Position numbers and translations under genes: made by a program. The notes under the pieces were generated by a model, which was not told where the DNA came from, ran no database searches, and worked only from the letters and a program-made list of their open reading frames with translations. A DNA stretch of 64,000 nt from Vermamoeba vermiformis (taxonomy: Eukaryota). Below, one piece after another: positions 1 through 55,492 of the stretch. The stretch spans positions 1 through 64,000 of the forward strand of contig JBEWZL010000276.1 of NCBI GenBank assembly GCA_045837725.1. Direction: 5' to 3'. Positions within the stretch are counted from its first letter, which is position 1. Each line of letters starts with the position of its first letter.

Positions 1-16
1 ATTGAAACAGTTTGGT

Positions 17-2082
17 TTATTCGTTTAACATTCGATGAAATTTGACTGACACTAAATGCTCTTCACCCCCATTCAAGTCATTTGATATTCCGCACACTTT
101 AAAACTTTTTGCAACGATGTCGGCTGGGACACGATTCCACGCAGATACTATCCAGTTGACAACAAGTTGCTTGGTGGGGCTCTGAAACACTGTTTGGTTA
201 GCTCTCCAGCGATCATGCATAGCCCTGTAATGATGCTTGAATGACTTGTTAATTGACACGTCAAGAGGCTGGACAATTGGGGTGCAAGCAGGAGGTATCA
301 AAACAATGTGTGTGTTAGCAAATTGGCGTTGTTTTGAGGCTTGAAATTTCTTATGTCCTCCAAATTCATCCCAAACTAGCAAGTTCACATTAGTCCCAAC
401 ATGGTGATGCCAAACTTTATCAAACCACAGCCGTGTCAAAGAGTGATCGTTCCAAGCGTTTTCTTGAAAGGCAATGTGTGCCACTTTAGGGGATACTACT
501 ACACCTTTGACGCAGGCAGTAGTTTTACCTTTGAATATAATCATGGGTGGTAACTTGGTGCCGTCAGCCATAACAGCTAATATCACAGTGACGCGACTGC
601 GTGATGCCCCAGATGTTTTGACAACGACCGTCTTTGATCCTCGTTTTTGAACAACCTTTCGAGCAGGAACCTCATAGTAAATGGCTACTTCATCCATATT
701 TCCAATGAAGTTGACTGGAATGCAGTGGTTTTGACGATTGGTGTTGATTGATGTCCAGAATTTGTCCAGTTCCTCGGCGAGTGCCTCGCGTGTGTACAGT
801 TTTGAGGTTGACACAGTTGGAGTGCGTAACGAAAGGTTGTGCCTGCGAAAGAAGCCGTGCAACCATTTATCAGATGCCGCAAAATTAGGGTGGATCAACT
901 TTGCTTTGTCTTTGATGTTTTGCGGTGTCACTGATAGTTTGCGGTCACGACGGGCTAATATCCATGAACACAATTGAATCTCTTCAGCCTCTGTCAACAG
1001 TGGTTTGCGTCCACCACCATGTTGACGCAGCCTTCCAAATTGCAATGTTTTTTGTCGCCAAGAATACAAAGTTGATTTTGGAATTTTGAAAAGACGCGAC
1101 ACCTCAGCAACTCCAAGACGTTTAATTTGATCCAAAATGTAAATAAACTGGCGACGATTTCGCTTTAAAGAATTATACGAGTTAAGTCGCCGCTTAACGT
1201 TAAAGGGTTGGGAGGTAACTGGTCGCGGACACACATCAGGCTTTGAAGCTTGTTTTACTTGCAGACGATGTTTTAAGAAGTCAAATTTATCTAAATTATA
1301 GTAAGATATATGTATTATAAGTCTCTGCCCATCGTAAGTAAGCCAATGAATGAGCCACCAGGTGACCGGTAACAAATCCATTAACAGACCACAGATGAAC
1401 AAAGAGCATCAGTAAAGCATACCTGAGAATGGAACAACTGGAAAATCACAGGAATTCACTTTAGTGAGTGTCTGCTTGTGTTGTACTGGAGACTGTTGCA
1501 GTTGAGGAGGCTGATCTAGTGCCTGAATGTCAGGATCTAGTTCTGTTAGTAATTGATCAAATTCGATGGGATTTTTTTTGTTTATAGTCAATTAGACTGT
1601 GCGCGTTCCAAATATGCAAACAGAATTGAATTCTGTTGCATAGTAACCCGTCGAGACCCGCGACAAGACCCGCGAAAAATTTGGTTCCTTGCAATGCTAT
1701 TCAGCTCAATGAACACAGAATTTAAAGTGTCTTATATGTCGAAGTAGGTTATTTGAGGTGTAGAATTCGAATTTGATGTCAAAATAAGGTTCTGAGCTCA
1801 TGCGATCCCAGGCGTGGATTTACGATTTGGATTAAAATTTTGTACTGACTTGTACTCCACTCAAAAATTCTATCTATTGAATAGATATATATAACAATAT
1901 TTTACAATACCTCTTGTGATAGTTTTGGATGCTTTGGCTGCAGGTCGATTTTGCTGGCTAGATCTAACTTGTACCTCTGCTTGCTCATCTGCAAACCATT
2001 TCCTATGGCGACCCCTTCTTCTGTCACTCCTGCGCAATGACCCAGGCTTGAGTTGCTTATAATATCTCTCTACTGTGGTCAT
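17..2082 (-). CDS. pogo-superfamily (Passer/POGK-like) DD35D transposase; predicted exons 2082-1911, 1542-1423, 1290-17 (521 aa)
   Basis: N-terminal HTH (GVAEVSRLFKIPKSTLYSW), CENP-B-type HTH (FAASDKWLHGFFRRHNLSLR), catalytic NMDE / LVWDEFGGH / QPLD with 35 residues between D2 and D3, and C-terminal SFKVCGISNDLNGGEE. The upstream exons join in frame through GT-AG introns 1910-1543 and 1422-1291. Confidence 0.9.
1541..1856. repeat. 316-bp inverted repeat, left copy (inside intron 1 of the transposase gene)
   Basis: Its reverse complement matches 2394-2709 with 5 mismatches and no gaps by manual alignment. Confidence 0.97.
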
Positions 2083-2216
2083 ATTGGTTCGATTGGAATA
2101 AAATTAATAAAATTATTCACCAATGGCCTTATTTTGGAAATTTTTGAATTCAGTCTCTTTGCTACCAGTTTTATTTGCCAGAATAGCACCAAAGGGTTTT
2201 ATTTTAGATATTTATC
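2083..2216. promoter_or_regulatory. Putative bidirectional promoter between the two divergent ATGs
   Basis: 134-bp AT-rich gap between ATG 2082 (-) and ATG 2217 (+); inferred from position only. Confidence 0.55.
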
Positions 2217-4181
2217 ATGTATCAAGACCTCGAATTGACCTCATTACAATCTCTGCTTGAGCACTGGCAACATCCAGGGCCAGTAACAGTGATTCTCCAA
2301 GGAATCCAACGCAGCACTGGAAAAGACAATCAAAAGAAGATGTACAGGTATTATATATACTCTAGATACCCTTAGTATCTAATTTATAACTTCAGTACAA
2401 GTCAGTACAAAATTTTAATCCAAATCGTAAATCCACGCCTGGGATCGCATGAGCTTGGAACCTTATTTTGACATCAAATTCGAATTCTACACCTCAAATA
2501 ACCTACTTCGACATATAAGACACTTTAAATTCTGTGTTCATTGAGCTGAATAGCATTGCAAGGAACCAAATTTTTCGCGGGTCTTGTTGCGGGTCTCGAC
2601 GGGTTACTATGCAACAGAATTCAATTCTGTTTGCATATTTGGAACGCACACAGTCTAATTGACTATAAACAAAAAAAATCCCATCGAATTTGGTCAATTA
2701 CTAACAGAATTGGATTTTACAGAATTCTGGTCACAGATGGTGAACTGCAGACTAACTTTGTTCACAACTCGACTCTAGCTGCCTGGGTTAGTCAAAATCT
2801 GAGTTCTGGTCGCCTACTGAAGCTTCCTGCAAGCAGTTGGGCATTTGTAAATGTTGACGAGTAAGTGCGAACTTATTTATTGCGGCGCCGCTAACATTGA
2901 TTAGGACAAAGACACTGTGCATTACAGACACAAGCAATATTCAATATTCAGAAAAAACACCTCATGTGAAGCCCCTATACCACATTGGCTTGGGTCCTAA
3001 TGTTAGCGAGTTGCCGGCGCCACCGCCAATCAAGTCAAAAAGCGACCAAATTGTCGACTCCACTGGCATATCAGATCAAGCACCAGACAACAACATAGGA
3101 CCCGATTCAAATGCAGAATTAATCACAAGTGATGTTCCAGCAGTAGACAACCAAAGCGAGAGTGCCGATGATGAAATTGATGACTTTGTAAGTTTTCAAC
3201 TAATTGCCGAACGTTTAATAACTCATTCTGTAGTATCAAACCATGAAGCAAGACAATGATAAACTCTACTCTTTCTATTACAAGAAGCATCCGATCCAGT
3301 ATCCAAACAATTCGCGCGCTTACTCTGCATTGCTGGTTCGAAAGTCGAAAAAGCGAGTGCGGGTTGGATATGATTATGACACAAAAGATTATGGGGTTGT
3401 CAGCGTTATTGCAGTTCTCAAAGTGCGAAATGGAAAGGCTTCTTTATTAGTTTTGGATGCCGAGGACGAAGTCCAGCGTGTGTCACCATCTTCGGTCAAA
3501 AATGAAGTTGGACAATCCAGTGCAACAGTAGTCAAGTCATCAGAGAAAAGAGTACATCAGTATTTGGAGCAATCTGAAGATACGGAGCCAATTTATTCAC
3601 CACAAACACCTCGCCAAAGAACTGTTGTCACGCGCACTTCCACTTCTGCGATCAACTCGAAGCAAACTCCCAATACTAACTCCATGCAACTTGTGATATC
3701 TCGTATTGAAGCACTTGAAAAGGAAGCCAGAGAGACCAAAGAGAGCATTCAGAAGCTGTCGAAACTACTGGAGGCACAATCTGCTAATTTGGCTAAAAAT
3801 TCTAACTCTGCTCCTCAATATCCTATGTTTGTTCCCTACCCTCAACTTAAAGGATATTTTGAACCAGCCCAGCAGTCTCCCAATAATGAAAATCGAAAAC
3901 GAACACACCGCTCTCGCTCTCGCTCCCGCTCACCATCTCCCAAGTCTTCGCGTCACAAACGGCACCCTTGGCAACTGAAATACTACAGTGACTCCAGATC
4001 ATCTTCATCCCGCTCTAGATCTGCCTCAAACTCACCTGAGAGGAGTTTTGAAAAGCACTACAAGAGGCGAAGATCCAGATCTCCAGATCGCCGACACCGA
4101 TTGACTCACCAATCCCCACGCTCACCCACTAGGTATGATTCATATGCACACAAGAGTTATAAGAAACAAAGATTTTATTAA
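2217..4181 (+). CDS. Unknown protein of about 499 aa: RPA70N/TPP1-like OB fold at the N terminus, acidic linker, beta-rich domain, coiled coil, Arg/Ser-rich tail; predicted exons 2217-2347, 2723(or 2708)-2860, 2905-3187, 3234-4181
   Basis: Four exons splice in frame with canonical GT-AG and join ORFs 2556..2864, 2897..3259 and 3243..4181. The spliced motif KMYRILVTDG resembles RYRLLMSDG of RPA70N. The tail contains RSRSRSRSPSP. Confidence 0.75.
2394..2709. repeat. 316-bp inverted repeat, right copy (inside intron 1 of the OB/RS gene)
   Basis: See the left copy. It ends in ...TACTAACAGAA, the branch point/acceptor region. Confidence 0.97.
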
Positions 4182-4605
4182 ATAATAAACACCATTCCAA
4201 ATTTCTTCAACTTGTTTTGCTTTACGACTTATTTGGCAGTTTACAGTACACCAATTTTAATGCTGCGATCGAGAAATGTCGTTCCTGAAACCACATCGGT
4301 TTGACAATTTTGTGTTAATTCAATTTAATTACGCATAAATTTTTTGAATGCAACGGTTGCGTTAGTATCTGCTTCAGATTTTGAAAGAAATCTTGTTTTG
4401 CTTTTAACTTACATCCACTTCCCTTCGCTGGCAAACGCGGTAAAACAATTGACAATCACAATAACGTGCTAAAATAGTATGATTAAACATCTCAATTATT
4501 TCTGTTATCTGTTCGCTGATCTGTTTCAGTTGTGAAAAATAAAAGTTGAAGAGTTTGAGACCGAACATTCCAAACACTGGATCAACACAGCTAATATCTT
4601 TAATT

Positions 4606-6253
4606 ATGGCTACAGAGTATACGGAACGAGTCAAGTAAGAGAATGGTGCTTTAGCAAGAAAAATATCGGATCTGATCTTATTGTTTTATTCATAAACAAC
4701 TTAAAAATTGACAACTAACAGGAATTTATAATTATTTAATATATTGTTGATTTTAATACAATTTTAAACGGTATAATCGCTCAATAACTAATTTAGAAAG
4801 TCAGATCCATTTTTTGAAAATTTTTGTAAGCTAACGTAGTGGTTGTAGGCGTCGCTTGAACAATATTCTCGAATCGACTGACTTAAATATCGGCAAAAAA
4901 TTTGCCGGCAAAGTCCGCGACGTTTATGAATTGCCGAATGAGATCGTGATCGTCACTACAGATCGACTCAGCGCCTTTGACAGAAAATTAACAAGCATTC
5001 CTTTTAAAGGGTACATATAAATACAATATTACTACCATAAAGATGCTAATTATTACATTAGACAAGTGTTAAACCAAACAGCAGCGTTTTGGTTCGAACA
5101 AACCAAGCACATCTGTCCAAACCACATTATTGCCATCCCCGATCCTAATGTTATCGTGTGCAAGAAATGCACCGTATTTCCCGTAGAGGTAAAATGCATT
5201 CCTTTAATCTCGAACCATCTACATCCGATCTGCAAATTCAATTCCTGCCACAAGAGCTTTTATGACCTGGTTATACTTACTAATTGTATCAAATAGGTTG
5301 TTGTTCGAGGTTATGCTACTGGAAGCACTGCTACCTCATTGTGGACTCATTACAGGTAAGATCCGTCTTTTCATTTAACTTTGAAACTGCTCATTTCTTC
5401 GCCACATCCGAGATACTTATAGTTTTATATATTATAGTAAAGGAGAACGTAAATATTGCGGTCACGTCTTGCCTGATGGCCTGAAAAAAGATCAAAAATT
5501 ACCACAAGCTATTGTGACTCCTACAAGTACGTTCCACGAGTCCTAATTGTTGTCTTATAAGACTATTTTATTTATTATAAGTATTATAATATTAATTCAA
5601 TGCTATTTTAGCTAAGAGTGACGAGCACGACGAATTGATTTCAGGCGAAGAAATTATTGCTAAAGGATTAATGAGCGAGGTAATAATAGCACTAAGGCAT
5701 TATAACAGGTAATATTGGGGCTAATGTTCATTATAATAGGCTGATTGGAAAGTTGTGCACGACATGGCATTGAAATTGTTTGCTTTTGGTCAAGATCTAG
5801 CCGCCAAGAATGGAATGATCCTCGTTGATACTAAATACGAGTTTGGCAAGGACGTACAAGGCAACATTTTATTAATTGATGAGAGTAAGCAGATCCACAA
5901 CACTTCCTAAAAAGGAAATATTTTGTACTGACAAATACTTCTCAGTTCATACACCTGATAGCTCGCGTTATTGGATTGCATCGAGTTACGAAGAAAGATT
6001 CAATGCAGGACAAGCACCTGAAAGCGTTGATAAGGATATTGTAAGAAATTGGTACCGACAGCACTGCGATCCGTACAAGGATGAAGTATTGCCGAAAGCA
6101 CCCGAAGACTTAATTGTGTTGCTCGCTGAACGATATATTAACCTTTATGAGCGTATTACTGGCCAGAAATTTGAGTTCCCTTCCGAGCAAGACGAAAATA
6201 TTCCTGTCGGATCCCGCGTGGAAACCAACTTGAAAAAATACTACAACAAATAA
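4606..6253 (+). CDS. ADE1: SAICAR synthetase (phosphoribosylaminoimidazole-succinocarboxamide synthase), multi-exon
   Basis: Motifs [45 protein letters not shown] and DKDIVRNWY across exons; first exon MATEYTERV at 4606. Confidence 0.95.
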
Positions 6254-10148: not shown

Positions 10149-10228
10149 CTTAGATGTGTTCGTCAGGCCAAAAATTAAAAAATAAATCTCTTGTAACCCG
10201 CCAAGGAAGCAACACACCTTATCACAAT

Positions 10229-10612
10229 ATGTCATCATCATCAGGCTCCGCTACAACTTCCGCCGCACCTGTGACTGGATCACACAGAGCTGGATTGCAG
10301 TTCCCTGTTGGCAGAATTTCCCGCATGCTAAGAGAAGGAAAATACGCAAACCGTATAGGTGTTGGTGCTCCTGTATATTTAGCAGCAGTATTAGAATATC
10401 TAGCAGCTGAAATCCTCGAATTATCTGGAAATTCTGCCCTTGATCAAAAAAGACTACGGATTGTGCCGAGAGACATTCAATTAGCCATCAGAAACGATGA
10501 AGAATTAAATAAGCTACTTTCTGAAGTTACTATTGCATCTGGAGCAGTTCTGCCTAATATTCACAGCGTCCTGTTGCCCAAAACTGACTCCAATCCCGAT
10601 CCACAACAATAA
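10229..10612 (+). CDS. Histone H2A, divergent variant, intronless
   Basis: [54 protein letters not shown]. Confidence 0.95.
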
Positions 10613-13866: not shown

Positions 13867-16748
13867 ATGATTAATGCAGCGAATATCAAATCAGACGATC
13901 AAAAAACCGTAGAAGAATTGTTAGCCGAGCTTGAGCAAGAAAGGAAGAAGAATACTAAAGCTCAAGCAAGAACGGCAGCAAGAAAAATTATCAACTGTAG
14001 TTTTAGATCACATGGTTCAAATGGTTATTCTTCTAGATAAACAAGGAAAATGTATGGAGGCAAATAGAATAGCTATCAATACAGCTGGATCAACTCGAGA
14101 CAGAATTCAGGGGATGCATTTTTGGTAATTTAATCGTTAATTTAGTTGGTTTTCAGATGGACCTTGCTGCCACTACGATAAATAACGGCAAAGATACTCT
14201 AATATAATAATTACTAATATATATACCATATAGGAACGCTTTATCGTTCAAGCCATTTCCTGAAACAATTGAAAAAGTCAGAAACGCAGTCGAGACAGTT
14301 AAGCAAGAAAAGCGCTCTGTTCGAGAGGAATTTGCTATGATGAAACGCAAATATAATCTACAAATACAAGCAGATTTTACTTTTCATCCGCTGTTAGGTA
14401 AGCGCCAGTTTTCTAAAATTGAGAAAAATTGATCGGATGGCGTTCCGTAGCGAACTCGGAACCTCCGGCATTCTGGTACTTGATATTATGCCAATATCTT
14501 AATGTCATTTTGCCTATTACTAAGAGTTTTCGAACGATAAACTTCTGCTTTTGCTTTTTAAAACTTTGCTCGCTTTTTAGTTCGCCGGATCGTTAACAGG
14601 ACACGAGCAAGGCTTAAAACGGCCCTCCAAAGCAAATTTAACGTACCCTCTTATCATATTTTCCTTATTTTTCGTCATACAAATCTTTTTGTTGTGATAC
14701 AAATATTTTGGTGGCTAAATCCGGTTTTAATTAACAGATGCTGATGGCAACGTCGAGTACATACTGGCAGAAGGTCGTGATATTACTGATAAAAAGCATG
14801 CCGAGCTTGAAGTCGAGAAGAAAAATCAAGAACTGAAAGAGCTTTATGAGCGGCTACGAGAGATAGATCTGACCAAATCTCATTTTATTGCAACGGTCAG
14901 TCACGAGCTAAGAACACCCTTAGCATTAATATTAGGCACTACTCAATGGCTGGAACACGAAGAAGTCATCACATCCGATAAGCGACAACAAGCTTTTACT
15001 ACTATCAACTCTAACGCCTATATTTTATTAAAAGTAAGTACCGTATAACGTTACAATATCACCACTAAAGCTTAGAAGTCGGCGGTTGTGAACTGGATCG
15101 CCGGGTCGCACGAGTGTCACTGACACTTTGACACTTTATTAACGAGTTTTGTATTGTTAGAGAGTCAATGATTTGCTCGAGATTTCAAAGTTAGAATCAG
15201 GAAAGATAGAGCTGCATACGGTGGATATAGATCTGGCAATGTTTTTGGATCAGATCTGCTCTCACTTTGAAGTACTCGCCAAAGAGCGAAACATCGACTT
15301 TAGGAAGCTCTTTAATAGAAATATAGTCGCACATCTCGATGTCGAAAAAATCGAACGAATTGTCTTCAATTTACTGTCCAACGCGTTCAAGTTCACCCCC
15401 GAAAAAGGCGTCATCGCGATCAGTTCTAAATTAGGAAATGACGGAACAAAGTTCACAATTGTCGTCGAGGACTCGGGCCCTGGTATTCCTGAACAAATGT
15501 GGCCTAAAATCTTCCAAAGATTCTTAACTTTGGGTGATAATGAAGGCGGTGCAGGCTTAGGTACGAACAATTTTTCGAACGAAAATTCCTGCAATGCCTA
15601 ACTTTCCTTTTTTGTTTAGGCCTTGCTATTGTTAAAGAATTGACCGAAGCACACGGTGGAGGTGCTCGAATTAACAAATCTGTTCACGGTGGAGTTTTAA
15701 TGGAGATCACTTTACCCGTGACTTTGCTCGGCCACTCGCCAGCTGTAAAAAGAGTGGTGAACTCCTCGAGTGGAACATCGCTAGGAGCCCCCGTTGCCAA
15801 CACTGCCGCGCAAATGATGGCCGAATTACGTAGTCACTTGCAGCGTGACAATGCGCAACAACAGTACGGTCAAAAACCTGCCACGTCGAAAGTAGTACCA
15901 CATTTGCCTCTTCAACATCAATTCAACAACTCAGCCCAACACACCAACGCGCGACAAAACAATGGCCCTGGTGAAGATTCGCCGCTGATTCTCGTGGTCG
16001 AGGACAATGTGGCCATGAACTCGTTCTTGAAGGAGACTCTGGGCCGTGAATACCGAGTACTGACTGCTGTTAATGGCCAAGTAAGTCAATCATGCGTATA
16101 TAATTTGGCGAAGAAATTGTTGTTGCAATTTCATTGAGCTGAGATCCAATTTGAATTTACGTGCGTTTTATTAACCAAATCTTCCCTTTTTAGGAAGGCG
16201 TCAAACTCGCATTGAAATTCATTCCTGACTGTATTGTTAGCGACGTTATGATGCCCGTCATGTCCGGTGAAGAAATGGTGCATATTATCCGAGATCACAG
16301 AGAACTCGAGACAGTGCCTATTCTTTTATTGACCGCCAAAGCCGATGATGAGCTTAAAGTCCGATTATTGCGTAGTGGCGTGCAAGATTTTCTGCAAAAG
16401 CCGTTCAAATTGGACGATTTATTGGCACGTGTCAGAAATTTAGTGACCATGCGACAAACGTGGGACTCGTTGCAACGTGCCTTGCTCGCGCAAAGCAAAA
16501 ATTTGCGAGAATTAGTCGATGATATTACTACACTATTTGGACAAGACAAATTATACACACTGCCGCACACGATCACGCAACAATTTGGAGATCTCATTTT
16601 AGACGACCCAGAAGGCCAACAAGAAAACAATAATAATAGCAATAATGTCAGCCTTGATGCCACTAATGACTTTGACGATGAATCGTCCTCCGAAGATGAA
16701 GACGAGGAAAGTTCGGATGCCGAATCCAACGAGAGCGCTGAAAATTAA
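13867..16748 (+). CDS. Hybrid sensor histidine kinase (PAS-HisKA-HATPase-receiver), multi-exon; apparent frameshift near 13950
   Basis: PAS/PAC (LAEGRDITDKK), H-box VSHELRTPL, N-box NLLSNAFKFTP, DSGPGIP, GAGLGL, and receiver VVEDN / SDVMMP / LLTAK / QKPF. Confidence 0.93.
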
Positions 16749-41843: not shown

Positions 41844-42371
41844 CAAAATGAAGTGCATTTGACCTCTCATACCCTTATACCAGTGAGGGTAAAGAGGTGC
41901 AACAATGTGTCTGGTTATGCCAGTGAGAGCAAAAAGGAGGCCTCTTAGGGGCCGAAAGGAACATGTCACCATGTAATCATTCAACCACCAACACTTGCTT
42001 GGAGTGTGGTTCCATCACTACTGATTAAATGTGGGCTCAATGAGCAATCCTGGCAATACCCCAAACACCCTGACTACTTTCCACAGCCACATAGGCAATT
42101 CAGTCACTGGTGTCATTGTTGCAACAGGATTTAGTTGGCATTTCTAGAGCTTGTAAAATGAATTTCAAAACATAGAGATGAAAAGTTGCATTTGATAGGG
42201 TTCTGCATGTAAAAGCAATGAACAGTTCTCAGCACTACCTGGTTAATTCAGCTGTGGCTTGGTTGTGGATTCAGAACTGGTTAATTATTCTGCAGTAGTG
42301 GAGGCCACCGATCAATGAGAATGCTTTTCCTTATTTACACGGCTTGAAAGTTCAGTTTATTAATAGCACAG

Positions 42372-42435
42372 TTAATTTGCAAAAGCTACAAGCACTGAGA
42401 GTACTGCATAAATTGTATGAATGAAGATCAGTAGA
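42372..42435 (-). repeat. Decayed direct copy of the 3' end of the LRR gene (42824-42890)
   Basis: TAATTTGCAAAAGCTACAAG is identical in both places and is followed by about 40 bp of diverged match. Confidence 0.85.
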
Positions 42436-42823
42436 TGGTTTGTTTAAAACAAAAAGGCAATAGAAGAAAACATCCGACCAAAGCGAAAAGCGCGACGCGC
42501 GAGAGGGGGCGAGTCGGTGCACGCACACATTTCCGAGCTTCCGGCAGTTTGGCGCCAGTACAGAACACAGTTGAAAGCGCGAGCATGCCGACGAGAAGCC
42601 CCGCGTCCCCAAAATTAAAAAAGAGAGACGGGACTACGAGAAAAAACAAAAGCGGCCCCCCTGCATTAGCAAGCTACATCACACGGGTGGAGCCCAAGGA
42701 ACGCCAAATCTGGGACGCAGACGGGCGAGCCACAGAGAGAAAAGCGATATTTTTGCTTGAGTTAATTAAGGGTTAGAAAGGCAAGCGAGAACAGAAGCAG
42801 GAAAAAGCTCATTTATTAAGCAT

Positions 42824-44989
42824 CTAATTTGCAAAAGCTACAAGTACCGAGAGTACCGCATACATTGCGTGAAGTGAAGGTGCAGCTGATAGCATCGGTA
42901 CTGTGCTTTGTGGGGACGCATCCGGATTCGTGGGACTGCTTGGAGTGTTGGTGCTCGATGGTGAGTTTGAATCAATAGGCTGATTTGATGATGAGTTGGG
43001 ATTAGTGGGACATTCAACATTGATGTCAGCATTCACTGTTCGTGTTTGTCCAACAACCTTCTCGCGGATCTGGTACGACCATTGACACTCACTTGGTGTG
43101 ATGATTTCCATCACCACTGATGACATGTTGGTCGATGAGCATGCAAACTTGAATAGATCAACGTCAGTGAGGTGTGTGGAGGTGTCAACGAGTGACATGT
43201 TGACGCGAATAGTGCCATTCAGCGTCAAGCACTCCGCTGTGATCAGTTCCTTTTGGTTTGTCAAGTCGATCACGCCGTTGTACTCGACACTCAGAGCAGT
43301 GTAGTACGTGCTTTCAGGAGATTTAACGCTTCCAGAAGCAACCGCAAGCATCGTAGATGACTCACCTGAAACGCAAAAAAGTCAGTTTTTTTCGTTCAAT
43401 CAACTGTAACGATAAGAAATGCACGCACAAGGATAGAATATGGTGTCAATAGGAGCGTAGCGAGGGTCGTAACAACAGAACTTATTGCCTGCGTAATTGC
43501 CGTTCGGGTTGTTTTCAATCGACAAACAGCCCACAAACTGGTTGTTTTGAAGTTCTCTATAATACCTAGTCTTAGTATCGATGGTCTAGCGATACAAAAA
43601 ACACGCATGCTACGTACAAAACGTTCAGTGGTAGTCTTCCTAGTGCGGATGGAACTGTCCCCGAAAATTGATTGTCGGAGATTTGTCTGTTCGAGTAACC
43701 ATTAGCGAATACTCTGATATTAATATAATTATGTTGCTTACATTTGCGATAATAGAGTTAAGTTTTCAATCGAATCGGGGATCGTTCCGTTAAATTGATT
43801 GTTGCTCAGTGACCTAATCAAAGCAAAGACGAGTTATTTAGCTTAATTTTGTATCTAAATGCACGTGACTTACAAGTATTGCAACGTTTGAATATTTGTG
43901 ATCGCGCTTGGAAATGTGCCGGTCAAATCATTTTTCGAAACGCCCCTGAAAAAGTAACCAAAGTTTAGGTTCCGTATAGGCGTATTTCCTAATTACGTAC
44001 AAATAAACTAGGGAAGGCATAGTGCCGATAGTGTCGGGAATAGTGCCATATAAATGATTATGGTCTAAGGCCCTGAACAAATTCGTTAGTTTTGGTTGAA
44101 ATGAAATGATATTCAGCCGTACAATGTTTGCAAGCTGGTAAGATTTGCGATTGACGCAGGAATAGTGCCCGTTAAATTGCTGAAAACTAGCCACCTATAA
44201 TTGGTTCGTTAATTTTTGAAAGGGAGAGAACGAAATAAAGTTGACTTACAGCCGTGTGAGTTTGGTAAGTTTGCCAATTGTTTCGGGTATACCTCCCGAG
44301 AAAGAATTACTCGTAGTTTCTCTGTTTAATATGGATTAATAATACGTTCAGAGAATTGAATGTTTAACTGACAAATTCTGCAGTTGAGAGAGATCGCCAA
44401 TGGACGCAGGGATGGTTCCGCTGAAATAATTGGCCGATGTATAACTTTATAATATAATTAGTAACGTCGTTATTGGAAGCAAATTGAACTTACAGCTTCT
44501 GCAACGCGCTGATGTCTCCAAGTGAATCCGGCAAAGATCCTGTCATTTGCATTCCTCGGAAGTCGATGCTGTAATCAAATTAATATAATGCCTGCAGCGC
44601 TTTATAGGAAGAAATTGAATCATTTTCTAATGTCACCTTGTCAACTGAAAATCATAAATTACGACGTCGTAAAGTTGTAAATTTATGATTTTTAACATGC
44701 ACGTGTCGCGACAAATGCAATCCGTATTTGCGGACAGTAGGTAATAATACGTGTAAATATATATAGCGTATATAATAGCTTACGTGGTTACACGGCCGCC
44801 AGTGCAAGTAATTCCTTGCCATTCACCACCGCAAGGGCCGGTGTCGTTGGCACCCCAGTAGACAGCCAACGAAGGCACGGTGACTTTAAAGTCCTCCAAG
44901 GCCTTGCGCTCGGCGAAGGTCATTTGGCACCATATTACTGGCACAATGAATAGCATTAGTGTTGAGAAAAAGTTAACGAAACGTGTCAT
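42824..44989 (-). CDS. Secreted, probably GPI-anchored leucine-rich-repeat protein, multi-exon
   Basis: Signal peptide, LRRNT-like PCGGEWQGITC, LDHNHLYGTIPDTIG-type repeats on short exons, Ser/Pro/Thr stalk and hydrophobic C terminus. Confidence 0.88.
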
Positions 44990-50516: not shown

Positions 50517-53500
50517 TTAGCTTTTTACATTTTTCTCGTCTGTTGATGAAGTACCACTGCCGGCATTATTGTTATTGCTACCACTATTGCTTCCACTTGA
50601 GTCAAGCACTTTCTTATAAGTGCCAGGCATGGCACTCGGAGGCATGCTAGTACTACCTCGTTCCACGAGATTGCGTAACTGGAACAGCTCGTTCTTCAGC
50701 AGCTGATTCTCGTGGTACAAAGTCTCGTACTTGCTCTGGTAATAACTACCGTCATTACCCTTCTTCAGCGCCTCAATTTCTTTTTCTTTGGCATCAAGAC
50801 GCGTTTGAAGTTCAACGGCACGTTGTGGATCGCCGGATGCGTAGCTAGTGTTGTTCTTAGGATAACTGCCGGAAGAGCTGAACGTCGCAGCTGATTTGAA
50901 GCTTGATGAATGTTTCTGGCGGTCCATTGTCAACTTGCTCACGAACAAAGTCAACACGCTGATGCCTGTATAAAAAGAAGTCAGATCTTGACGCGCACGC
51001 GTCAAAATATTACTTTTGAGTTACGTACAAGTGCCCAGCATGATGCCAGCACTACGCAAGGCATACAGAAGTTCTCTATCCGTCGCCTTAGTGAATTGGA
51101 GCACGCTGATAAGAATCGCAAAGAATGCAGCGTTGTACATCTGCAACCGCAAGTTAATCTTTAGCTCTAAAGTCTGTATGCACAACGTACTGAAAAAGCG
51201 ATGATTTTGGACTCGTTGTACAACGAATATCGCAACTTTCTAATCTTCCAAGCGATAATCAAGCCGCCAACGCCCAATACACCCTATATATTATTATTAA
51301 TCCCATTAGTTTGAGTTGATTGTATATGCTGTGCACGTACGTTATAAGCTATCAAAGCACCAGCAATGCCAACATTATTGCTCGTTGGACATTCTTCGTA
51401 ATCGTGAACGGGTCGGTACGGATCCACAACTACGCGAATGGGAGTCATATCAACGACACCAACTTGAACGGCACAAATAACCTACGGACAGGTCAGCGTA
51501 CGGCTAAAGTGATATTTGATTGGCTTACAATGTTGCCGACAAGAAGACCAAGAATGATCAACACGAGTTGCGTGTCAGTGATCTTGAAAATCTTTAGCGA
51601 CGTGTTGCTGCTCAGTTTGTAAATTCTCCATGACTTAGCGAACAAAGCACTGTGCAGTTGTTAGTAACGATTGTTGACAAACGGAGACTCGGATCTTACC
51701 CAAACATAATAGTCCAGCCAAATGATAACAGCCATGACTGAAGATAGCACGATGGTGCACTAACAGCAGACAAGCCCCAAGTAATGACGCTCGAGTAAAT
51801 GAACATGGATCCGATCAAGAACACAATCAACAAGTTCGGTGAGCTTGCTCTAAAAGATTTAAACCGTTAGTGAGATGCAACCTCGACGTTATATATTAAT
51901 ATATTTACTTTATGATAGGCGACTCGCGTGTGACAGCAACGTAGATCAGTAAACTTAGCGAGAACAAAATGCCCAAAACAGCAAGCGAGAAGAACACCCA
52001 CTCGGCAGTATAAGCTAAAGAGTTAATCAGTACTTATGCATATTTAAAATAGTGGTCGAACTTGCAATTAAAGTTATCCAAGAACTGACGCTCGTTCCAT
52101 CCAGGGAAAGGATCGATTACATCGAACGATTCAATTTGGGCCAATGGAGGTCCAACGACTTTGTGTGTGCCATTGACGATTTGTACGAACAAGCACGAGA
52201 GTTGATTGCTGTGGTCGACACCGTAGAAGAACTGACCCATAAACGTGTCACGGTTGAATCGTTCCACCGCATCCCGAACGTCTTGTTGTGAAAAGGAGGG
52301 TGCATTCTATAAATCGTACACAATTAGTATAAATTAACTAAGATTATCTGTGACCTGAGATTGTCAAATTTTATCAATAAAACAGGTAAATGTCCAAATT
52401 TGGAAATTTAGAAAACAGTTTGAATTTTTCGAAGCACTGACGCACTTGATCGTGTATAGTTATTACTCAGGCTATACTTACTTCAATTGATAATTGTAAC
52501 AGCATACCAGCCATAGAGCCGAAGGCAGAGTAATCATCGGGAGTCACACCGTACTTGGCTACGTACTCTTTGACGTATTGTTGAGTACCGCTAAAGACAG
52601 GATCGTTCAAGAAATTAGCAGTCGCTTCAAACTGCGGACAAAAGGGGTCAGATCGAGTCCACAACTTCGATGCAGTATAATTTTCTTACGCGAGAGCAGC
52701 CGGTGATGAACTCGTTGACTTCTTTGGAAGAGTTATACAAATCGTTAAATGGCAAGAAAGTGACAAAGTTAGGAGCATATTCTTGACGCTGAAACTCTTC
52801 CATAATCAGTTGCCCAGTATCACCAAAAGCACATCCGATTACGGTGTGGATGTCTTGTTGTTTAAGATCCTAATCGATAGTTAGTTTACGTTCTATCACA
52901 TCAGTGAATTAACAAACTGTCGCACATAAGCACAAATCACAAGAAGATTGAATTTAATCGCGATCCGAATCTACTTACTGCGACTGCATTGCGAATTTGT
53001 TCTTCAGCATAGTCGCTAATGCTTCCAAGACTAGAATTGATCGAATAGGATGCTACGATCTCAAGTCCATTGGCACTGGCCTGTGAGATCACGTGGTTAA
53101 TAAAAAATATTTTTGTGAACGGTTACCAACAATCCATCGCTGAGCGATTTTTCCAATCTCTACCAACTTACCAAACCTAACTATAAATAAATTTAAGTAT
53201 AATTTAACTACATGTCGGATCTGTCCGTAAAAGTGTTGTGCCGTTTATGATTTTCCGGTGACATAATGTCAAAATTGTAAATTTAAATCCCCAAACACGC
53301 GTTTAGATAAGAATCTTCGATTATACTTACTTCGCGACTAGTCATTCCTTCACAAGCTTCTTTAGGGCTCGTAGCTTCTGAGATCAGCAATCCCAAACGC
53401 GGCGCATGGCGAAGGCGATAATAAGGAAAAGCAACCGTTGGGCAGCGAGTAGAGGCCGTGACGACGCTGAATGAGTATTGTTTGTTCAAGTAGAAGCTCG

Positions 53501-53903
53501 TTGAAGACACTGCAGTGCCGATCAATAGGCGTTGATAACTTTCAGTCAGATCTGAGACCGGATTGCTCGTTTCAGAACCAACAGGACCAAGCAGATAATC
53601 CACTGTACTGTCGTTCAAAAGTTTTCTATAATTTTCCAAGGTGACAGCGGCGCTTCCATCGTCCTCTAAAACTTTCAGTTCAAATTTATAAGTTTGTCCT
53701 CTGATCTCTTTGCTCGTCGCTGCAATCTTGTCCAGCCAGAAATTTAAGCCGTTTAAGATTTTAGCACCTTGTAGAGCTCGACTGCTTCCTGTGGGAGTTG
53801 TAGTCAACGAGATACCAAGTGTTATAGTGCCGCTGGAGACGTCGCAAAGTGTAGATCCGATCGCAACCAACAACAAGCACGACACAATGAGTAAAGTGCG
53901 CAT
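50517..53903 (-). CDS. Class C (GABA-B-like/Grl-type) GPCR with a periplasmic-binding-protein-type ectodomain, multi-exon
   Basis: Signal peptide, VLEDDGS...VDYLLGPVGS, 7TM motifs PIIKASSPNLL, LFAKSWRIYKL and FNESKIIAFS, and a C-terminal coiled coil. Confidence 0.87.
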
Positions 53904-54697
53904 TGTTGATCGTATTCGTGTGTGGTGCAATGTTCAATTGACGAATTAGATCTGACGATTGGCATCTTCACTTGTTCATTGTATCACCACGTGATCATGT
54001 GTCGTTCATGACGTATACCATTATTTCCATTTTTAGACGTCCAAAAGAATACAATCTGGCTCAGAGATAATCGTACATGTCGTTTGCACGAGAAATGACC
54101 GTTATTTAAGCTTCGCATCATTGGCACGAAAGTCGATACATAACTGTTTTGGTTAGCGAAGGATCAAGGCTTTGCGCAAGAAATTATCTTCACTAAATCC
54201 AACGGCAAGAATTCTTGATTCGCAGTGTATCTTTGCCTGTCAAGCTCGCAAGTATGTAAACTAAACAACAAACGAAGTTAGATTGTTTCAAGATCATAAA
54301 TCCGTAAAAAAAATTATTTAAATTTTAATGCAATGGAACACAAAAGGTTTTTACGGCCTTACATCTTATACACTACAAAAAATTAACTAATATTTTCCTG
54401 ATATCCCTTGCAGTTTCCTTCATAGCCAGATCATGTTTGATTTTTCGCAAGCGCCGTTTGCGGCATTATATCGGCTGCTATAATTCGGCCTAATACATGA
54501 TTATCTGGCTATAGTTGCACTTCGCCTAAGCAAGCAAAAAAAGGCGGGCTCGAGAAATTTCTCTGCTTCGTTCGCCTAACAAAAAATTTTGCTGTTCCTA
54601 ATTATCTGCGTTCGGCTCAGGAGCACAACACAAATACAAGAATAAAGATGGAGTCTTATTATCAACAAAGAAATATAGCGAAACACCGCGAAGCAAG

Positions 54698-55492
54698 ATG
54701 CAAAACGTGAAGTGCGTAGTTGTCGGTGACGGAGCTGTTGGCAAAACTTGCCTATTGATTTCATACACATCCAATGCATTCCCCAATGAATATATTCCCA
54801 CTGTATTTGAAAACTATTGTAAGTAGTAGCAGCAAAAAATTGTTTCTAACCCAAAAGAAATATTCTAATGCTTATTAATGTAGGTGCAAGCGTATTAATT
54901 GATGGAAAGCCTTATTATTTGGGTTTATGGGATACTGCTGGACAAGAAGATTACGACAGGTACGCGATCTGGTTAGGCTTATTCCAAGCTTGCGTGTTAG
55001 TGACCATCTTTTCTTGCATTAGGACATTATAGATTAAAGTACAATATTTCTAATATTTTTATAATTTTTAGATTGAGACCTTTGTCCTACCCGAACTCGG
55101 ATGTGTTCTTGGTCTGCTTCTCTGTAATTAACCCGAACTCCTTCGAAAACGTTCGTGCAAAATGGTACCCTGAAGTATCACATCATTGCCCGAATGCTCC
55201 TATTATTCTCGTTGGCACAAAGGCGGATTTGCGAGAAGATCCCGAAGCCCTCGAGCGACTTGCCTCCAAACGCCAAGTTCCCGTTACTTTTGAGCAAGGA
55301 CTTCAAATGAGCAAAGAGATTGAGGCTTACAAATACATGGAATGCTCAGCATTGACTCAGAAAGGTTTGAAACAAGTGTTTGAAGAGGCAGTTCGATCTG
55401 TTGGCGAGTCACAGCGAAAACAAAATTTGAAGGCGAAGAAGAGCGGTAAAAAATCTGCGCGAAGCGGACGTGGCCAATGTATTGTATTGTAA
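54698..55492 (+). CDS. Rac/Rho-family small GTPase, three exons
   Basis: [50 protein letters not shown] and CAAX box CIVL. Confidence 0.96.

Follow-up and report, generated by a model that had tools for sequence, protein, structure and literature searches.

Pogo elements are described as carrying one or two ORFs that encode transposases, within a length range of 1.2 to 5.2 kb (PMC7386202). Among them, the Passer-like DD35D elements combine HTH_Tnp_Tc5 and DDE_1 domains with a DD35D triad and a TA target, and the description of their ORFs in that survey names neither an accessory gene nor long internal inverted repeats (PMC7386202). The element presented here, located at the edge of a 64,000-nucleotide stretch of Vermamoeba vermiformis DNA (the window), shares these domains, this triad, this target and a length within the range, but possesses both an accessory gene and long internal inverted repeats. 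The Tec and TBE elements of ciliates are likewise Tc1/mariner-group DNA transposons with extra ORFs, characterised by a DD34E triad and three ORFs and, in Tec, by terminal repeats of about 700 bp and a site-specific recombinase (PMC7325037). In the present element, by contrast, the triad is DD35D, the long repeats lie internally, within predicted introns, and its ORFs gave no recombinase match.

Other described systems bear on the possible behaviour of these repeats. At the MAT locus of Sclerotinia sclerotiorum, a segment lying between inverted repeats of about 250–300 bp flips and truncates a gene, no invertase being known; both orientations are shown, the event is linked to meiosis, the repeats are identical and the affected gene belongs to the host (PMC3574095). 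The present element shares the layout, but a single orientation is known, the repeats differ at five sites and they lie inside a transposon. In Hansenula (Ogataea) polymorpha, inversion at MAT is also a eukaryotic expression switch, which is demonstrated and differs in being about 18 kb long, starvation-induced and position-based (PMC4238957). Bacterial invertons, finally, hold a promoter or part of a gene between inverted repeats, but they are flipped by invertases, and long reads across the repeats have confirmed the flips (PMC10028968); neither point applies to the present element so far. By analogy, flipping would work here like the Sclerotinia and Hansenula MAT inversions, and not like the invertase-driven bacterial ones. 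No published account of this architecture was found in a search whose scope lay short of supplements (Table S1 of PMC7386202 could include one), repeat databases and most subscription papers, and the novelty of a two-gene pogo element with mirrored first introns is provisional.

The element is a pogo-superfamily DNA transposon made of a transposase gene and a divergent second gene (the partner), with the invertible-looking cassette at its centre. Transposase exon 3 (17–1290, minus strand, stop codon at 17–19) harbours the HTH_Tnp_Tc5 and DDE_1 domains (Pfam E 9.5e-12 and 1.4e-27, respectively) and a D-107-D-35-D triad. Upstream of it, predicted exon 1 (1911–2082, minus strand, ATG at 2082, donor GTATTG, phase 1) and predicted exon 2 (1423–1536, minus strand, phase 1 to phase 1) would be joined by predicted splicing (2082–1911, 1536–1423, 1290–17) into an open model of 519 residues. 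Exon 1 DNA was found in the public run X1 with one difference, and the frame of exon 2 stays open, by eye, in the loose end of a diverged relative. The matches of the relatives P0006 and P0007 likewise start at DKFD, in exon 3. Intron 2 (1291–1422) is itself open in frame and contains an ATG, so that the gene predictions P0004 and P0125 run on across it, and its retention could yield a shorter transposase lacking exon 1.

With regard to classification, the features seen comprise a DDE_1 domain with an N-terminal HTH_Tnp_Tc5-type domain, a DDxD triad and TA insertion at several loci. The DD35D spacing is found in the window transposase and in P0005, while P0006–P0010, that is five of the six close relatives, have DD33D, unlike the DD35D Passer. 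In a midpoint-rooted tree of 28 rows, in which four POGK rows represent other pogo elements, a branch with 100/100 support separates the transposase and its six relatives, as a clade of their own, from POGK; membership in the Passer family is possible.

The partner is read from the plus strand. Its predicted exon 1 (2217–2347, ATG at 2217, donor GTATTA, phase 2) and predicted exon 2 (2723–2860) are followed by a predicted exon 3 (2905–3187), flanked by introns of 44 and 46 nt, and by exon 4 (3234–4181); predicted splicing of the four gives an open model of 499 residues. Exon 4 encodes a conserved domain of about 95 residues that belongs to none of the known families, as well as a tail rich in Arg and Ser. 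Both features are common to the partner and its one relative, P0128 (E 2.4e-17, 36% identity over 227 columns), with 19 and 13 RS/SR dipeptides, respectively, in the last 100 residues. The loose end of the diverged relative also preserves, by eye, the L...WVS of partner exon 2 in frame. Neither gene was found in a spliced form among the protein matches, and the partner ORFs matched no known family; structural modelling of the exon-4 domain gave a pLDDT of 34. By eye, the peptides of exons 1 and 2 may resemble the N-terminal OB fold of RPA70, a likeness for which Pfam and PDB offered no support when each exon peptide was submitted separately.

The comparison between the window and X1 bears on both genes. 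Among 40 listed of 58 differences, 14 of the 20 changed codons of the partner and 10 of the 16 of the transposase are synonymous, against 25–33% expected (P ≤0.0007 and ≤0.013, respectively), which demonstrates selection on the two coding regions. By its relative P0128 and this pattern of substitutions, the partner is a genuine gene whose coding region is under purifying selection.

The right end of the element, a presumed TIR (4225–4246, minus strand), precedes a TA target dinucleotide at 4247–4248. After 4248 the flanks of the window, X1 and X3 are three different sequences, the contigs of both runs diverging from the window at that position, and X1 moreover contains an empty site, in the form of a contig that begins at 4247 with other upstream sequence. 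The element thus ends at 4246, before the TA, with the partner inside it, and it has been mobile. On the other side, an X1 contig continues 22 nt beyond base 1 of the window, placing the left end outside the window and the length of the element at 4.27 kb at least. These comparisons cover four of the 18 public runs listed. In the material compared, neither a second full-length copy nor a relative with both arms was recovered. None of the 41 related metagenome loci carries the partner or an arm by BLAST, and an inverted-repeat scan of ten of them found no long pair, the longest being 67 nt; the viral and prokaryote genome collections returned no matches.

The long inverted repeats consist of a left arm (1541–1856), within predicted transposase intron 1 (1910–1537), and a right arm (2394–2709), within predicted partner intron 1 (2348–2722). 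The first-pass annotation had described repeats of about 98% identity around 1857–2393, and recomputation gives 311 identical positions out of 316 (98.4%), the mismatches falling at 1557, 1602, 1662, 1793 and 1794 of the left arm, with a spacer of 537 bp. Within 1–5000, the longest exact inverted match is 130 nt, compared with at most 20 nt in 100 shuffles. Contigs from X1 and X3 read through both outer arm junctions and the left inner one, so that at these three of the four junctions the repeat is no assembly artefact; the region 2188–2395, with partner exon 1 and the inner junction of the right arm, is represented by the window sequence and lies outside the contigs of these two runs. The arm-specific base nearest the outer end (1557/2693) is identical in the window, X1 and X3. 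Divergence between the arms (1.6%) is on a par with that between copies (1.2% and 1.8%). Symmetry beyond the arms is not significant, since 67, 78 and 187 of 1000 shuffles score equally well, and an older, larger duplication is therefore unsupported. A TIR-like site in the arm is no more than chance would give, as 86 of 150 random stretches do as well, Rfam returned two weak matches, both under threshold, and folding of the partner intron is not unusual (z −1.62).

Taken together, we regard it as slightly more probable than not that the arms represent a duplicated module of intronic sequence placed around a bidirectional promoter, on which recombination acts incidentally and for which a flip would be a rare knock-out. 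Both genes would start in the 537-bp centre from one common promoter; the gap between the two ATGs (2083–2216) measures 134 bp and is AT-rich, and its position suggests this role. Each first intron would extend outward through one arm, so that an identical 316-nt segment, containing the branch point, would be present in one and the same orientation in both pre-mRNAs. The module may have arisen by an inverted duplication that is either recent or homogenised by gene conversion. Acting incidentally on the arms, fold-back and recombination by the host would then leave deletions at their boundaries, and occasional inversion would be expected as a knock-out of both genes, not as a programmed switch. 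In yeast, inverted repeats give rise to conversion and inversion through the host Rad51, Rad52 and Rad59 proteins (PMC8748988), which makes occasional flipped copies plausible, as knock-outs. Pairing of the two pre-mRNAs into double-stranded RNA was considered and ruled out, both transcripts carrying the arm in the same sense. An X3 contig covering 1664–2040 bears two differences whose positions are not given; if they fall at 1793–1794, they would indicate conversion or exchange between the arms. What the locus firmly provides is a pogo element with two genes that has moved, whose accessory gene is under selection and whose predicted first introns mirror each other. The mirrored module offers a testable design for co-regulating two transposon genes, through either DNA inversion or shared splicing control.

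The splice signals were read against the host, a gene-dense eukaryote with short introns. All exon junctions discussed here are predicted ones, the RNA runs X15 and X17 yielding zero and one read of this stretch, respectively. In the neighbouring SAICAR synthetase gene, mapped with P0130 (the first three computed introns being excluded and the acceptor at 4848 retained), introns measure 51–108 nt. A branch motif stands 12–16 nt before the end of six of the seven introns, the other lacking a clear one, and in intron 1 splicing skips an AG located 5 nt past the branch. Each arm of the element terminates outward in ACTAAC-AG and starts inward exactly at an AG. Given the branch-to-acceptor pattern of the host gene, the arm AG, 3 nt past the branch, is probably skipped in favour of acceptors just outside the arms, at 1537 and 2722. 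The inner AG of the right arm, for its part, closes a possible intron of 48 nt (2348–2395, plus strand), host-like in length and with a branch motif 13 nt from its end, the use of which would leave a truncated partner of 68 residues. This option fits the host pattern better than the long first intron does, and the productive splice may consequently be wrong or regulated.

A shared splicing control would exploit this arrangement: the inner AG would be the default, non-productive acceptor, full-length proteins would need the outer branch point, and the Arg/Ser-rich partner or a host factor would act on the identical module in both pre-mRNAs. Several observations are in keeping with such a control, namely that the arms open exactly at an AG and close just beyond a branch motif, that the 48-nt intron obeys host rules, that use of the inner AG would cut the products to 68 and 64 residues, and that P0128 retains the RS-rich tail. 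On the transposase side, however, the equivalent short intron of 56 nt is weak, with a GAG acceptor and no clear branch motif, the SR-25 Pfam match of P0128 reaches just E 0.18, and RS-rich tails are also found in proteins unrelated to splicing. We consider this control possible, if rather unlikely. It is compatible with the duplicated-module reading, to which it would add the selection that keeps the arms alike.

The first-pass annotation had proposed that recombination between the repeats swaps the first exons and silences both genes. Recomputed on the predicted exons, the end phases are indeed 1 for transposase exon 1 (2082–1911) and 2 for partner exon 1 (2217–2347). After a swap, transposase exon 1 joined to the acceptors at 2708 and 2723 meets a stop after 80 and 75 residues, respectively, and partner exon 1 meets one within 61 residues at all 12 listed transposase-side AGs. 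The geometry and frames were thus correctly described, and a crossover between the arms would exchange the first exons and, in all likelihood, abolish both proteins. The suggested rescue of a transposase-exon-1/partner fusion by a distal AG at 2735–2736 holds as to frame, joining to 2737 giving an open product of 508 residues, but not as to likelihood: two other AGs precede this one, which lies at 32 nt from the branch motif, and the 12–16 nt seen in six of the seven host introns make such a fusion unlikely. Unequal intron phases are usual in two unrelated genes, so the stops met after a swap are no sign of design. Nor is the proposed likeness to bacterial invertons more than weak, as the arm contains no recombinase-type dyad site and Pfam gave no recombinase match in the element ORFs or in 23 of the 86 long ORFs of the window.

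It has to be weighed, nonetheless, whether the element flips its own bidirectional promoter/first-exon cassette often or on cue, turning both genes off and on reversibly by host recombination, without an invertase; repair of the excision gap would perhaps be the occasion for it. The geometry and the reading-frame logic suit such a switch, the near-identity of the arms implies recent duplication or exchange, and in Sclerotinia an inverted repeat of 250 bp suffices for a regulated inversion of 3.6 kb (PMC3574095). The same report gives the Sclerotinia repeats as identical in 36 of 36 isolates (PMC3574095), whereas the arms differ at five positions here, the outermost difference being shared by the window, X1 and X3. 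Besides the missing recombinase match and dyad site, the phase mismatch corresponds to the default, and the contig variants indicate deletions. Short-read contigs collapse the 316-bp repeat, and orientation is invisible to them, no listed piece spanning an arm. We hold a switch of this kind to be unlikely, a regulated flip being less likely than incidental recombination. Were flipping frequent or regulated, this transposon would join the few known eukaryotic inversion switches, without an invertase; were it neither, the locus would still stand out among pogo elements for its architecture and would clearly illustrate how internal repeats produce deletion derivatives.

Public contigs do suggest rearrangements, in the form of deletions. 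In an X3 contig, position 1556 is followed by 2732, the cassette being absent; the flanks are diverged but homologous by eye, and a loose end at 1556 in X1 matches this joint. Present in two unrelated runs, this cassette-less, diverged subfamily (1521–1556/2732–2767) has probably been amplified as a non-autonomous derivative and may be related to P0005, whose transposase is 87% identical. In X1, a spacer contig of 393 nt matches 1825–2187 over 363 nt and leaves exactly 30 nt unplaced; bin depths agree (181.8 predicted and seen, 13 being accounted for by a contig of depth about 416 that starts at 2396). From this arithmetic of length and depth, the coverage hole alone being no proof, the main copies of X1 probably lack partner exon 1 through a 2187|2396 junction. 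The breakpoints of both apparent deletions sit at arm boundaries or close to them, where fold-back deletion would be expected to place them. A further X1 loose end, at 4111, attaches other sequence to the last 135 bp or so of the element and is possibly a short derivative retaining the right end.

The presence of the cassette-less relative in two runs, together with the sharp arm boundaries, could also be read the other way round, with this relative as the ancestral form and the arms as the ends of a nested element or as two copies of a small element. No target-site duplication was found at the outer or inner boundaries, however, and an arm motif has no match in viral contigs. The arms, moreover, supply both introns with their branch motif, and the sole suitable start codons lie in the spacer. 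At its joint, the relative retains 16 nt of one arm while the partner acceptor is gone, as in a deletion. An origin by nested insertion thus appears very unlikely, and the duplicated module remains our preferred account of the arms.

The loss of partner exon 1 that the main copies of X1 seem to display raises a different doubt, namely that the first-exon models are wrong, the arms being outward duplicated promoter or 5′ regions, or partly coding, and the spacer inert. Within the right arm (2550–2707), the partner frame continues for 52 codons free of stops, and the three arm differences located there all fall at third positions. That frame, however, lacks a Met and meets a stop in the left arm, three of three differences on one codon position have a chance of about 1 in 9 for any frame, and both spacer exons give complete open models. 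The third-position pattern is probably due to chance, and we find wrong first exons hardly likely at all.

Some additional features of the arms and their surroundings deserve mention. A tandem AGACCCGCG motif pair plus a TTTTTCGCGGG run occurs at 1654–1675 and at its mirror in the right arm; the run resembles an E2F site, and these motifs are candidates for a regulatory motif common to both genes. At 2685, an X1 loose end displays a variant arm end that differs over 8 nt and retains the branch motif TCAATTACTAACA, which suggests from its sequence that the arm is present in another subfamily too. The SAICAR synthetase gene (4607–6253) begins 360 bp from the insertion, and its closest matches include many bacterial-type proteins. 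Other genes of the window are ordinary host genes and encode a histone H2A (10154–10612), a hybrid histidine kinase with a receiver domain (15544–16748), a periplasmic-binding receptor domain (53283–53933) and a Ras-family GTPase (55004–55492), and a 68-nt direct repeat (42354–42421 and 42806–42873, 452 nt apart) is 78% identical between its two copies.
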